Assembly: GCF_988242995.1 (NCBI RefSeq)
Contig: NZ_OZ547043.1
Strand: one strand, 5' to 3'
Length of the DNA: 64,000 nucleotides
Part shown: piece by piece, positions 12,001 to 18,000 of the stretch
Layout of the letters: the number at the start of each line of letters is the position of its first letter
How positions within the stretch are numbered: position 1 is the stretch's first letter
Position numbers: made by a program

Positions 12001-15000
12001 GAAGTGGTTGCAGAGAGTATCGAACGGTTAATTATCGACGGCGTACTGAAGGTCGGTCAGCCGCTTCCCTCGGAACGTCGACTGTGTGAAAAGCTCGGCT
12101 TCTCACGCTCCGCACTGCGTGAAGGGCTGACCGTGCTGCGCGGGCGCGGGATTATTGAAACAGCGCAGGGTCGCGATTCTCGTGTCGCACGGCTTAATCG
12201 GGTGCAGGACACCAGCCCGCTAATTCATCTGTTCAGCACGCAGCCGCGAACGCTGTACGATCTGCTCGACGTTCGCGCATTGCTGGAGGGCGAATCGGCA
12301 AGGCTGGCGGCAACGCTGGGAACGCAGGCTGATTTTGTTGTGATAACCCGCTGTTATGAAAAAATGCTCGCCGCCAGTGAGAACAACAAAGAGATTTCGC
12401 TGATCGAACATGCACAGTTGGATCACGCTTTCCATCTCGCCATTTGTCAGGCTTCTCACAATCAGGTGTTGGTGTTTACGCTGCAATCATTGACCGATCT
12501 GATGTTTAATTCAGTGTTTGCCAGCGTAAATAATCTCTACCATCGACCACAGCAAAAAAAGCAGATCGATCGCCAGCATGCGCGGATCTACAACGCGGTG
12601 TTGCAGCGGCTGCCGCACGTCGCCCAGCGCGCAGCACGCGATCATGTGCGGACCGTGAAAAAGAATCTCCACGATATCGAGCTGGAAGGCCACCATTTGA
12701 TTCGCTCGGCGGTGCCGCTGGAGATGAAGCAGGGGTGACTGCCATCAAATCTGCTTTTCATACAATCGGTAACGCTTGTACGGCTCTGCCCCAATGCGTT
12801 CCAGCATGTTATTCATGCCTGTATTGGTTTCGAGGATCCATGACATTTCCAGCGCATCGATCTTCCGGCGGGCAAACGGATCGCGTAAGGCTTCAATCAA
12901 TAACAGCGCAATCACCGGGCCGATGCGGCTAAACTGATACTCGTCCCGCACGCCCATCAGCGGTACTCGCGCAGTTCGCACACCGCTGACTTTTAAACGC
13001 CACAGCAATTTTGCCCAGCCGAAGGGAAAGAGCGATCCGTTCAGATCGGCAATCGCCTCGTTGATGTTTGGCAAGCCAACAATAAACGCGCAGGGTGCAG
13101 AATCAATCTCAGCGATGTAGATCATATCGTCCGGCACCAGATATTTAAGTTGATCGCCCATAGTCGCGAATTCATGTTCGGTAAACGGCACAAATCCCCA
13201 GTTGTGCTGCCAGCCAGAGTTGAAAATCTCACGCAGGATCTGCATCTCTTCGGCAAACCGCTGGCGATTGATGCAGCGAATGGTCACCTTCTTACGCACC
13301 TGATCCATCAGTTTTTTTAGCGCCGGAGAGAAAGTGAGATCGGTTCGCTGCATCCACCACGCTAGTAAATCAATGCCTTTGTGATAACCCAATTGTTCAA
13401 TATGCGCGGCATACCACGGTTTACCGTGCGGCATCATCGCACAGGGTGGTGTATCGAAACCTTCAATCAGTAATCCGCTTTCCTGATTGATATTCAGGCT
13501 GAAAGGACCGCTGATCTTACTTGCACCTTGTGACTTCAACCACGCTTCCGCTGCGCCAAACAACGCGGCAAAAACCTGCGGATCATCAATGGCGTCAATC
13601 ATGCCGAAATGACCGGTATCTTCACCGTAACGCTCGCGGTGCAAGGTATCTATTTGCACGGTAATACGCCCAACTATCTGCCCTAATGCCGATCAGTTAA
13701 GGATCAGTTGACCGATCCAGTGGCTGTGTAAGAATCCGGAAACGCTCACTTGTTTCCGGATTTTTTTATGCACATTGGACAGGCTCTTGATCTGGTATCC
13801 CGTTACGATTCTCTGCGTAACCCACTGACTTCTCTGGGGGATTACCTCGACCCCGAACTCATCTCTCGTTGCCTTGCCGAATCAGGTACTGTAACGCTAC
13901 GCAAGCGCCGTCTTCCCCTCGAAATGATGGTCTGGTGTATTGTTGGCATGGCGCTTGAGCGTAAAGAACCTCTTCACCAGATTGTGAATCGCCTGGACAT
14001 CATGCTGCCGGGCAATCGCCCCTTCGTTGCCCCCAGTGCCGTTATTCAGGCCCGCCAGCGCCTGGGAAGTGAGGCTGTCCGCCGCGTGTTCACGAAAACA
14101 GCGCAGCTCTGGCATAACGCCACGCCGCATCCGCACTGGTGCGGCCTGACCCTGCTGGCCATCGATGGTGTGTTCTGGCGCACACCGGATACACCAGAGA
14201 ACGATGCAGCCTTCCCCCGCCAGACACATGCCGGGAACCCGGCGCTCTACCCGCAGGTCAAAATGGTCTGCCAGATGGAACTGACCAGCCATCTGCTGAC
14301 GGCTGCAGCCTTCGGCACGATGAAGAACAGCGAAAATGAGCTTGCTGAGCAACTTATAGAACAAACCGGCGATAACACTCTGACGTTAATGGATAAAGGT
14401 TATTACTCACTGGGACTGTTAAATGCCTGGAGCCTGGCGGGAGAACACCGCCACTGGATGATACCTCTCAGAAAGGGAGCGCAATATGAAGAGATCAGAA
14501 AACTGGGTAAAGGCGATCATCTGGTGAAGCTGAAAACCAGCCCGCAGGCACGAAAAAAGTGGCCGGGACTGGGAAATGAAGTGACTGCCCGCCTGCTGAC
14601 CGTGACGCGCAAAGGAAAAGTCTGCCATCTGCTGACGTCGATGACGGACGCCATGCGCTTCCCCGGAGGAGAAATGGGGGATCTGTACAGTCATCGCTGG
14701 GAAATCGAACTGGGATACAGGGAGATAAAACAGACGATGCAACGGAGCAGGCTGACGCTGAGAAGTAAAAAGCCGGAGCTTGTGGAGCAAGAGCTGTGGG
14801 GTGTCTTACTGGCTTATAATCTGGTGAGATATCAGATGATTAAAATGGCGGAACATCTGAAAGGTTACTGGCCGAATCAACTGAGTTTCTCAGAATCATG
14901 CGGAATGGTGATGAGAATGCTGATGACATTGCAGGGCGCTTCACCGGGACGTATACCGGAGCTGATGCGCGATCTTGCAAGTATGGGACAACTTGTGAAA

Positions 15001-18000
15001 TTACCGACAAGAAGGGAAAGGGCCTTCCCGAGAGTGGTAAAGGAGAGGCCCTGGAAATACCCCACAGCCCCGAAAAAGAGCCAGTCAGTTGCTTAACTGA
15101 CTGGCATTACAACTATCTGCCCCGCTTTTTTTGCCACCCACGCCTGCCAGATGATATGGTCCGTCCCCGGATTTTTCGCAGACAAATGCTCGTTGCGTTC
15201 AATGAATAAAGGGGGTATCCAGTTTGGATCGTCGGGATAAAGTGATGACGGAAAAGCGATAAATGCCTTAAGGTCATTTTTATTAATTACTTTTTCAATT
15301 TTAATCATCAGCAGATCGCATTCCATAGTTCTGTGGGTAACAAATAATTAACGGTGACAAACAGGTTGCAACAGCAACGAACGGCACCTTAATAATCAAC
15401 CCAATGAATACAAACGACGAATAAATAGTATTTATTAATGATTACGATAAGGTTAGAGACTACACAGAAGCGCCACAATGCCTTTTGTCGATTTAAGGCG
15501 ACCGGACAAGGCTTATTCTTAATATATTCATAAATTAAATATCATTCACAATAAAAACAAAAAAACTCAAACTCATTATTTAAATCAATGTTCATTTTCA
15601 CACTGATGAAAATACTATCTCATTTATCTTTTATGCCTATATAATCCACCGCATTATTGTCATTTTATTTTTGATATCCAATTTTTTCGTGGTGTATATG
15701 TCTAATAAAATCTTTACGCATTCCCTACCTATGCGCTATGCCGATTTTCCAACGCTGGTTGATGCTTTGGACTACGCCGCTCTGAGTAGCGCCGGAATGA
15801 ATTTTTATGACAGACGTTGCCAACTTGAAGATCAACTGGAATATCAGACGTTAAAAGCGCGTGCCGAAGCTGGTGCGAAGCGGTTGTTATCGCTGAACCT
15901 GAAAAAAGGCGATCGCGTGGCGCTGATTGCCGAAACCAGTAGCGGGTTCGTAGAGGCTTTTTTTTCCTGCCAGTATGCCGGCTTAGTCGCCGTCCCGTTG
16001 GCGATTCCAATGGGCGTCGGTCAGCGGGATTCCTGGAGCGCCAAACTGCAGGGTTTACTGGCAAGTTGCCAGCCCGCAGCCATTATCACTGGTGATGAGT
16101 GGTTACCGCTGGTCAATGCCGCGACGCATAACAACAACCCCGAATTACATGTTTTAAGCCACGCCTGGTTTAAGGCATTACCGGAAGCCGATGTTGCGCT
16201 CCAGCGTCCAGTTCCGAACGATATCGCCTACCTCCAGTACACCTCCGGCAGCACCCGTTTTCCCCGTGGCGTCATTATCACCCATCGCGAAGTGATGGCT
16301 AATCTACGTGCTATAAGCCACGATGGCATTAAATTACGCCCTGGCGACCGCTGCGTCTCCTGGCTGCCTTTCTACCATGATATGGGACTGGTCGGCTTTC
16401 TCCTGACCCCCGTCGCCACGCAGCTCTCAGTAGATTATTTGCGCACTCAGGATTTTGCCATGCGTCCTCTGCAATGGCTTAAATTGATCAGTAAAAATCG
16501 CGGCACCGTTTCCGTTGCGCCGCCGTTTGGCTATGAATTGTGCCAGCGCCGCGTGAATGAAAAAGATCTCGCTGAACTGGATCTTTCCTGCTGGCGCGTT
16601 GCTGGTATTGGTGCTGAGCCGATCTCCGCAGAACAACTCCATCAATTCGCTGAATGTTTCCGTCAGGTTAACTTTGACGATAAAACTTTCATGCCGTGCT
16701 ACGGACTGGCAGAAAATGCGCTGGCTGTCAGCTTCTCTGATGAAGCCTCCGGGGTTGTGGTTAACGAAGTGGATCGCGACATCCTTGAATATCAGGGCAA
16801 AGCCGTCGCGCCGGGTGCTGAAACACGCGCCGTATCGACTTTCGTCAACTGCGGTAAAGCGTTGCCGGAACATGGCATTGAAATCCGCAATGAAGCAGGT
16901 ATGCCGGTCGCGGAACGTGTGGTAGGCCATATTTGCATCTCCGGCCCTAGCCTGATGAGCGGTTACTTTGGCGACCAGATTTCACAAGACGAGATTGCCG
17001 CGACGGGCTGGTTAGACACCGGCGACCTCGGTTATCTGCTGGACGGTTATCTGTATGTCACCGGACGCATTAAAGATCTGATTATTATTCGTGGCCGTAA
17101 TATCTGGCCGCAGGATATTGAATATATTGCGGAACAGGAACCGGAAATTCATTCTGGCGATGCGATTGCTTTTGTTACCGCCCAGGAAAAAATCATTCTG
17201 CAGATCCAGTGTAGGATCAGCGACGAAGAACGTCGTGGGCAGCTTATCCACGCACTGGTAGCACGGATCCAAAGCGAATTTGGCGTAACAGCGGCTATCG
17301 ATCTGTTGCCGCCCCACAGTATTCCCCGAACGTCCTCCGGCAAGCCTGCCCGTGCGGAAGCGAAAAAACGTTATCAGAAGGCTTATGCTGCAAGCCTTCA
17401 TGTGCAGGAATCCCTGGCATGAATCAAACTGTCGCGGTGACGGGCGCTACCGGGTTTATCGGTAAATATATTATCGATAACCTGCTCGCCCGCGGCTTTC
17501 ACGTTCGCGCATTGACGCGTACTGCCCGCGCTCACGTCAATGACAATCTCATCTGGGTGCGCGGTTCTCTGGAAGATACTCATTCACTTAGCGAACTGGT
17601 TGCCGGAGCCAGCGCGGTGGTCCATTGCGCCGGACAAGTGCGCGGGCACAAAGAAGAGATTTTTACCCGCTGTAACGTTGACGGCAGCCTGCGACTGATG
17701 CAAGCGGCAAAAGAGAGCGGCTTTTGCCAACGTTTTCTGTTTATCTCTTCGCTGGCGGCGCGCCATCCCGAACTCTCCTGGTACGCAAATTCCAAACACG
17801 TCGCCGAACAACGGCTGACTGCAATGGCTGATGAAATTACGCTGGGCGTTTTTCGTCCGACAGCCGTGTATGGTCCCGGCGATAAAGAGTTAAAACCGCT
17901 GTTTGACTGGATGCTGCGCGGCCTGCTGCCACGACTTGGTGCGCCAGATACACAACTCTCTTTCCTGCACGTCACCGATTTTGCGCAAGCAGTGGGTCAG

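Follow-up and report, generated by a model that had tools for sequence, protein, structure and literature searches.

The yghO locus and its IS4 element

The stretch of DNA analysed here (64 kb of contig NZ_OZ547043.1, hereafter the window) contains a copy of yghO interrupted by an IS4 element, beside four intact genes for which roles in sphingolipid synthesis are predicted (Table 1). The 19 neighbouring proteins align over their full length and without gaps, leaving yghO as the sole broken gene. The gene stands alone: its 3' end faces that of glcC, and the aasR operon is transcribed away from it.

Table 1. Features of the interrupted yghO locus and the adjoining genes (window positions).
Feature	Position	Strand	Remarks
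C-terminal yghO fragment, residues 69-380	12745..13683	-	separated from start codon and promoter
Left target-site duplication copy CAACTATCTGCCC	13671..13683		abuts element end
IS4 element	13684..15109	+	1426 bp; 100% identical to K-12 MG1655 insG copy
Left terminal inverted repeat TAATGCCGATCAGTTAAG	13684..13701
Inverted repeat, 14-nt arms, 8-nt gap, then T run	13730..13765	+	just 5' of transposase start
IS4 transposase gene insG	13768..15096	+	442 aa, intact, opposite direction to yghO
11-pair hairpin followed by TCTTTTT	15080..15105	-	inside IS4 right end; terminator scan
Right terminal inverted repeat CTTAACTGACTGGCATTA	15092..15109
N-terminal yghO fragment	15093..15326	-	codons 1-72 + five IS4-encoded residues VMPVS + stop, 77 aa
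Right target-site duplication copy CAACTATCTGCCC	15110..15122		abuts other element end
Fatty acyl-AMP ligase, aasR homologue	15698..17422	+	intact, 574 aa; PMC9386255
NAD-dependent epimerase/dehydratase family protein, epi/cerR homologue	17419..18333	+	intact, 304 aa
Specialised acyl carrier protein, acpR homologue	18365..18613	+	intact, 82 aa
Serine palmitoyltransferase spt	18613..19785	+	intact, 390 aa

The original prediction described a 1426-bp element with an IS4-type transposase, terminal inverted repeats matching at 16 of 18 positions, and identical 13-mers on either side; all of these were reproduced, and the 13-mers proved on re-inspection to be an exact match. The 13-mer has exactly two copies in the window when both strands are searched (the probability that two fixed positions share the same 13-mer by chance is ~4^-13). 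Elements of the IS4 subgroup have lengths of 1400-1650 bp and ends fitting -AATR (PMC2266710, Table 1), with a published target-site duplication range of 10-13 bp (PMC2266710). The window element agrees with this description in its length, in its ends (both of which start TAATG), in its exact 13-bp duplication, and in its single DDE-type ORF, whose translation contains the Y-2-R-3-E-6-K motif and scores 299.6 bits against the NCBIfam model for IS4 family transposases (NF033592; cut-off 115).

Two structures within the element could influence transcription. The inverted repeat just upstream of the transposase start may block transcription coming from outside the element; the terminator scan did not include it in its list. 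The hairpin at the right end is terminator-like for transcripts arriving from the side of the yghO promoter, which it would face. Given that yghO converges on glcC and diverges from aasR, the insertion is not expected to have polar effects on glcC or the aasR operon. Read-through from the transposase gene into the aasR operon may occur, and promoter-like matches were at chance level only.

Disruption of yghO

Removal of the element and one copy of the repeat yields a continuous minus-strand yghO ORF of 380 codons from the start MECDLL, in agreement with the in-frame rejoining (~380 codons) that had been predicted. Counted from the MIKIEK start, the restored gene has 374 codons, and most homologues are likewise 374 aa long. 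The restored sequence is identical to the annotated yghO of NZ_AP022298.1 (100% over 1143 nt), as would be the case for the simple insertion into an intact gene that was proposed, and the further suggestion that the insertion is recent is borne out by the perfect duplication, the intact transposase ORF, and the canonical IS copy. A comparison with other E. coli genomes, suggested along with the original prediction, found yghO uninterrupted in 4529 of 5426 complete genomes, with no yghO match in 878; all matches in the complete genomes have at least 95% nucleotide identity to the restored gene. Since the gene is contiguous in 4529 genomes, the possibility that yghO is naturally two separate genes was ruled out.

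On the minus strand, the left duplication copy reads GGGCAGATAGTTG, corresponding to yghO codons 69-72 (G Q I V) and the first base of codon 73. The insertion point follows this base (380-codon numbering), interrupting the motif GQIV|GRI in the codon for Gly67 (numbering of the 374-residue protein). This glycine is invariant, its neighbours R68 and I69 are almost so, and in the AlphaFold model a strand of the first GNAT domain is made up of residues 64-74. The first 72 residues lie within the conserved fold, full-length homologues aligning from residues 1-16 to ~373. The longest ORF left in the C-terminal fragment is 304 aa and begins with GTG at 13659. The order of events that best fits this arrangement is that a canonical IS4 transposed into yghO, duplicating 13 bp of target DNA, and thereby split the gene into a 77-aa N-terminal stub and a C-terminal fragment deprived of promoter and start codon. 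The resulting yghO::IS4 is almost certainly a null allele.

Predicted role of YghO in ceramide synthesis

In E. coli BL21, yghO (ECD_02850) was reported as the orthologue of Caulobacter CC_1154 (44% identity, E 1e-107, 98% coverage; PMC9386255, Table S2), a gene required in Caulobacter for dihydroceramide formation (PMC9386255), and yghO, spt, acpR, aasR, and epi are clustered in BL21 (PMC9386255). Ceramide-like products of BL21 were seen only with spt, acpR, and aasR overexpressed (PMC9386255), and a literature search retrieved no report of sphingolipids made by E. coli from its native cluster. The restored YghO matched no family in Pfam or NCBIfam, and a PDB sequence search gave chance-level matches only; the fold was therefore taken from structure prediction. 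At the sequence level the GNAT signal is weak: searched against the GNAT family PF00583, only 5 of 73 relatives score E <= 0.001. The AlphaFold model of the restored protein (pLDDT 96.8) has tandem GNAT proteins as its best Foldseek matches (2wpw at 5e-16, then 5kf1 and 7q3a), so that a tandem GNAT architecture is predicted for YghO. A GNAT fold in the model and a position divergent from intact aasR-epi-acpR-spt are both features of a bacterial ceramide synthase, and the earlier reading of yghO as the N-acyltransferase of the pathway is strengthened by this model together with the CC_1154 orthology (PMC9386255).

Alternatively, yghO could be disrupted and yet not be the E. coli ceramide synthase, in which case the insertion would have no effect on sphingolipid synthesis. 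The activity of YghO in E. coli is a predicted one, the protein matches no Pfam or NCBIfam family, and one screen took it, as the K-12 allele, as one of its candidate lysine acetyltransferases (PMC6199490). The similarity of BL21 YghO to CC_1154 along nearly its whole length (PMC9386255), the adjoining aasR-epi-acpR-spt genes, and the predicted tandem GNAT fold make this alternative unlikely. With YghO as ceramide synthase, a strain expressing the cluster would make the long-chain base and fail to N-acylate it, a block at the acylation step.

Recurrence of the insertion

None of the 5426 complete E. coli genomes showed a yghO::IS4 insertion by BLAST, in either orientation, and the exact junction was present in none of the GTDB representative genomes or JGI metagenome contigs. 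Carriers, which come from public drafts and short-read assemblies, were found only by exact look-up of the fusion peptides. In all, 37 contigs encode the exact 77-aa fusion product, and the product expected from IS4 in the opposite orientation was read on 5 contigs (2 in another count); the fusion peptide counted from MIKIEK gave no record in this look-up. A 72-aa look-up retrieved genes ending where contigs stop 1-2 nt past the junction, which were left out of the carrier count; these contig ends agree with a breakpoint at that position and do not identify the inserted element. The Logan short-read assembly ERR15423959 contains both junctions, and its sequence is 100% identical to that of the window for 4245 nt at one and 3969 nt at the other; in the other carriers the junction was seen on the N-terminal side only. 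The absence of the junction from complete RefSeq genomes, GTDB representatives, and metagenome contigs might point to an assembly artefact, with an IS4 copy misplaced in a repeat-rich assembly. Against this stand the perfect 13-bp duplication abutting true IS ends, the independent assembly ERR15423959, and the occurrence of the same junction in dozens of other assemblies, and an artefact can be regarded as having a negligible probability.

The carriers differ in their genomic background. At least six flank haplotypes were distinguished, with 40-140 nt differences per 3.2 kb. The six forward loci share a single forward junction; in both the forward and the reverse set, the sequence beyond the junction is IS4 in the expected orientation. 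One forward locus (L016) and one reverse locus (L021) have identical 3.2-kb flanks (0 differences), and the L016 flank is also 100% identical to many complete genomes in which yghO is intact (i.e., the site is empty). Since the same junction occurs in at least six haplotypes, in both orientations, and on one flank identical to that of empty-site genomes, the yghO site is, as judged from these sequences, a recurrent IS4 target and not a single private event. The original prediction did not mention recurrence at yghO.

The competing explanation posits one founding insertion, passed on by inheritance and by homologous recombination, the site not being a recurrent target. The identity of the junction in all forward carriers would be expected from a single origin, and the IS4 copies are too uniform to separate events (e.g., L013 has 0 mismatches in 821 nt). 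A single origin is nevertheless difficult to reconcile with both orientations at the same nucleotide, with the opposite insertions in the identical flanks of L016 and L021, with the empty-site match of one carrier flank, and with carrier flanks that begin to differ 204-575 bp from the junction; moreover, the count of 0/5426 complete genomes is ill-suited to an old, widely shared insertion. Spread from one event is thus considered very unlikely.

The target consensus of IS4 in older papers is AAA-N20-TTT; a literature search on the IS4 target at galT gave no match. At 14 other distinct IS4 sites the duplications are 11-14 bp, and in most of them the left arm is A-rich and the right arm T-rich, as in the recurrent E. 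coli IS4 sites (also with 11-14 bp duplications). When 12 half-sites (from six IS4 sites picked regardless of flank similarity) were turned into a crude target model, the yghO site ranked only 490th of 62,523 window positions in its exact register, and a shift by one base brought it to 113th (top 0.2-0.8%). Because of this rank, the known target preference does not alone predict the yghO hotspot, and the target consensus is not claimed as its explanation. That insertions have recurred across several backgrounds, in either orientation, is consistent with the known strong specificity of the IS4 subgroup for its target arms. This hotspot for IS4 in yghO is previously undescribed.

Recurrence could also reflect more than a mutational hotspot, namely selection favouring the loss of YghO, or the use of IS4 to turn ceramide synthesis reversibly on and off. 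K-12 has lost the same gene by another route (IS5 and a deletion), the 878 complete genomes with no yghO match might be read in the same way, and the remainder of the pathway is intact in the carriers. However, the allele is rare (0/5426 complete genomes, and 37 contigs versus 290 for one intact allele), there is no evidence of precise excision, and all events fall at one nucleotide, as target specificity predicts, where selection for loss would scatter the disruptions; an explanation of this kind is therefore improbable. A specific form of it is also highly speculative, in which IS4 at this codon would be a recurrent, possibly reversible switch-off of N-acylation with long-chain-base synthesis kept, such that free sphingoid bases, not ceramides, would be released in the gut.

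Implications

Taken as a whole, the locus is very probably explained by a canonical IS4 insertion that makes yghO null, with a predicted block of acylation, at a recurrent IS4 target site. The allele would then be an ordinary insertion-sequence knockout of an accessory gene, with a predicted lipid phenotype. Its modest value lies in the fact that the predicted ceramide synthase is cleanly inactivated in a natural strain that has kept Spt, AcpR, AasR, and the reductase. There is disagreement on whether acylation or reduction comes first when bacteria make ceramide (PMC11087976; PMC9386255), and the product accumulated by the strain (3-ketosphinganine or sphinganine) would bear on that order; an engineered yghO deletion would serve the same purpose equally well. 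Additionally, repeated insertion of IS4 at one nucleotide provides a natural example of its target specificity within coding sequence, and calls for caution in strain typing, identical IS junctions being no proof of common descent.

Comparison with known systems

The window element resembles the IS4 of K-12 in every structural respect (identical 1426 bp, 16/18 ends, and a single 442-aa DDE transposase gene), and the two differ in location only, K-12 having a single copy elsewhere with a 12-bp duplication (CAGAACCAAGAT). As with the IS4 sites at mdh-degS, aroA-ycaL, the 3' end of bamD, the 3' end of adhE, and pdxK-crr, the yghO site is recurrent, and at mdh-degS both orientations are likewise found, in different strains. 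Most other recurrent IS4 sites are intergenic and resemble two-way terminator hairpins, whereas the yghO site lies in coding sequence and is not palindromic.

The statement in the original prediction that K-12 has IS5 rather than IS4 in yghO was correct: the K-12 gene has IS5 at its 5' end, 40 nt into the ORF, plus a deletion of ~8.4 kb that takes in aasR, epi, acpR, spt, the lptF/G-like genes, and the 3' end of yghQ. The two alleles are alike in that an insertion sequence has inactivated the same gene; unlike the K-12 allele, the one described here has IS4 at another position, in a cluster that is intact except for yghO. The closest counterpart of the protein is the bacterial ceramide synthase CC_1154 (CCNA_01212; Aca, bCerS) of Caulobacter crescentus, of which BL21 YghO is the reported orthologue and which it resembles in its clustering with spt, acpR, aasR, and epi (PMC9386255). 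Unlike CC_1154, the yghO of the window is interrupted, and the activity and product of E. coli YghO are predicted ones.

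The IS4 insertion in yghO

The insertion is real, and the interpretation given in the original prediction is supported. Re-inspection returned the same values for the claimed 1426-bp element, whose terminal inverted repeats (TAATGCCGATCAGTTAAG and CTTAACTGACTGGCATTA, 18 bp each) agree at 16/18 positions, and for the identical 13-mers flanking it: CAACTATCTGCCC is exact in both copies, which abut the two element ends, and no further copy was found on either strand of the window. The transposase passes the NCBIfam IS4 family transposase model (299.6 bits; cut-off 115) and its translation contains the Y-2-R-3-E-6-K motif, and from end to end the element shows 100% identity to the IS4 (insG) of K-12 MG1655. 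Its size, -AATR ends, and 13-bp duplication agree with what has been published for the IS4 subgroup (PMC2266710, Table 1). Of 5426 complete E. coli genomes, 2686 carry IS4. The event is of an ordinary type, a canonical IS4 inactivating an accessory gene. Added here are the identification of the pathway as a sphingolipid locus, evidence that it is otherwise intact, the precise point in the protein at which IS4 inserted, and evidence that IS4 has targeted the yghO site repeatedly in E. coli.

Features of the window and their positions
Feature	Position	Strand	Description
C0719 sRNA	5060-5281		between glcA and glcB; Rfam match above gathering score, 296.8 bits
Restored yghO	12745-13683 + 15123-15326	minus	1143 nt
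13-mer, first copy	13671-13683		target duplication
IS4 element	13684-15109		1426 bp
IS4 transposase ORF	13768-15096	+	442 aa; sole long ORF in the element
13-mer, second copy	15110-15122		target duplication
25-kb flank	15123-40000		best identity to any complete E. coli genome 98.8%
Continuation of sphingolipid cluster	19820-27157		second lptG/lptF-like permease pair, YtfJ-family gene, hypothetical gene, flippase-like yghQ
ES173 sRNA	48572-48635		Rfam match above gathering score, 92.3 bits
mqsR-mqsA absent	59869-59875		~5 bp between conserved flanks
Divergent segment	63398-63580		~80% identical to strain 3908 (flanks ~98%); beyond ygiZ in 3908

As predicted, in silico removal of the element and one repeat copy rejoins the fragments in a single open frame, of 380 codons counted from MECDLL or 374, the length of most homologues, counted from MIKIEK. 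Strain BEC1-S17-ESBL-09 supplies the uninterrupted allele: its annotated, intact yghO and the restored gene are 100% identical. The possibility that yghO is naturally two genes is ruled out, since it is contiguous in 4529 of the 5426 complete genomes. The duplication covers codons 69-72 (G-Q-I-V) and the first base of codon 73, which places the insertion directly before Gly67 (374-residue numbering), a residue that is invariant in a family alignment of 73 sequences and is followed by the nearly invariant Arg68 and Ile69. Alignments to full-length relatives begin within residues 1-16, which makes the N-terminal 72 residues part of the conserved protein. What remains is a 77-aa N-terminal stub ending ...AKKAGQIV-VMPVS and a C-terminal fragment without a promoter (longest ORF 304 aa); on the minus strand, the right end of IS4 carries a hairpin of 11 pairs with a T run after it, facing the yghO promoter. 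The only reasonable reading of yghO::IS4 is a null allele.

Sequence alone matched YghO to no Pfam or NCBIfam family, and only 5 of the 73 relatives gave a significant GNAT match. The AlphaFold model of the restored protein, built with the 73-sequence alignment, is confident (pLDDT 96.8, pTM 0.93) and closest among solved structures to tandem GNAT acyltransferases (2wpw, E 5e-16, then 5kf1, 7q3a, and MshD). IS4 interrupts the first GNAT domain within a beta-strand (residues 64-74).

Recurrent insertion at the same site

Among complete RefSeq E. coli genomes, none has IS4 at the yghO site in either orientation, and the exact junction was not found in GTDB representatives or JGI metagenome contigs. 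A total of 37 contigs in NCBI draft genomes, ENA, and Logan assemblies encode the exact 77-aa fusion peptide. Sample ERR15423959, probably the same strain, is 100% identical to the window across both junctions (4245 nt and 3969 nt), excluding an assembly artefact. The remaining carriers share the identical junction and are ~2% divergent from the window in aasR and epi. The peptide expected of the opposite orientation (...GQIV-VMPIS) was read on five contigs (two by another count), and loci L020-L023 show the IS4 left end past the yghO junction. Over 3.2 kb of flank, the carriers fall into six or more haplotypes, with differences of 40-140 nt between them. Forward carrier L016 has the same flanks as reverse carrier L021, with no differences, L015 differs from the reverse carriers L019 and L022 by one base, and many complete genomes with intact yghO match the L016 flank at 100% identity. 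A single old insertion spread by recombination does not fit the two orientations, the haplotypes, and the match to empty sites, which together show several independent, recent IS4 insertions at the same yghO nucleotide.

In L019 (GCA_003145675.1, NBDL01000066.1), within the 273 nt past the junction, ~72 nt of the IS4 left end run directly into another IS4 terminus (TAATGCC...) and then into sequence from the right part of IS4; the IS4 is either nested or rearranged, or the draft assembly is chimeric here. Some Logan contigs stop 1-2 nt beyond the yghO-IS4 junction (...GATAGTTG or ...GATAGTTGG), as expected if a sample contains both occupied and empty alleles; of 56 indexed blocks, six were examined (L024-L029), and four of these have flank haplotypes near those of known carriers.

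The hotspot is probably due to IS4 target preference. At 14 other distinct IS4 sites in complete genomes the duplications are 11-14 bp, and the arms of most sites are A-rich on the left and T-rich on the right; the yghO target (aATAcgcc CAACTATCTGCCC cgcTTTTTTT) has the same general shape. The first eight sites were skewed towards likeness to the yghO flank because seven came from BLAST extensions into flanks. A crude position-weight model was built from twelve half-sites of six IS4 sites taken regardless of flank similarity; it places the yghO site only within the top 0.2-0.8% of window positions and does not predict the hotspot. In complete E. coli genomes, numerous copies of IS4 are centred in hairpins that resemble two-way terminators (A run, GC stem, T run), with the duplication spanning the inner stem and loop, as at mdh-degS (L009, L031), the bamD 3' end (L033, L036), the adhE 3' end (L037), and pdxK-crr (L038). 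Different strains carry IS4 in both orientations at mdh-degS. Unlike these hairpins, the yghO target is not palindromic.

Pathway context and comparison with known loci

The gene order begins with the glc operon, glcC, and yghO, followed by a fatty acyl-AMP ligase (aasR homologue), an epimerase/dehydratase-family reductase (epi/cerR), an ACP (acpR), and serine palmitoyltransferase (spt), then lptG- and lptF-like permease genes, a ytfJ-family gene, and a hypothetical gene, and ends with yghQ, yghR, yghS, yghT, pitB, and gss. Alignments of the neighbouring proteins to an intact reference strain are full-length and gap-free in 19 of 19 cases. Since yghO is convergent with glcC and divergent from the aasR operon, a polar effect is not expected. 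The genes of the cluster continuation may serve lipid export or head-group modification; yghR, yghS, and yghT are mutual paralogues (34-44% identity), with yghS and yghT annotated in RefSeq as dTMP kinases. The identity of the 25-kb flank, set beside the perfect match of restored yghO to one strain, makes the region look mosaic. In strain 3908, the toxin-antitoxin pair mqsR-mqsA, missing from the window, lies between ygiS and ygiV (L012 45308-46236, ~930 bp).

The corresponding cluster of BL21(DE3) has been described as the sphingolipid locus (aasR, ECD_02851; epi, ECD_02852; acpR, ECD_02853; spt, ECD_02854), in which yghO (ECD_02850) is given as the orthologue of Caulobacter CC_1154 (44% identity, E 1e-107, 98% coverage; Table S2), the acyl-CoA N-acyltransferase (Aca, bCerS) needed for dihydroceramide formation (PMC9386255). 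Biochemistry was done for E. coli Spt, AcpR, and AasR, and the roles of YghO and the reductase are only proposed (PMC9386255); we found no report of sphingolipids made by the native E. coli cluster. Judging from orthology, gene context, and the predicted fold, the strain would be blocked at N-acylation, and the lipid phenotype of yghO::IS4 is a prediction. The statement that K-12 carries IS5 rather than IS4 at this locus proved correct: in the K-12 reference IS5 abuts yghO 40 nt into the ORF, and ~8.4 kb is gone from the IS5 junction to the yghQ 3' end. The K-12 IS5 allele and the IS4 allele described here are not equivalent.
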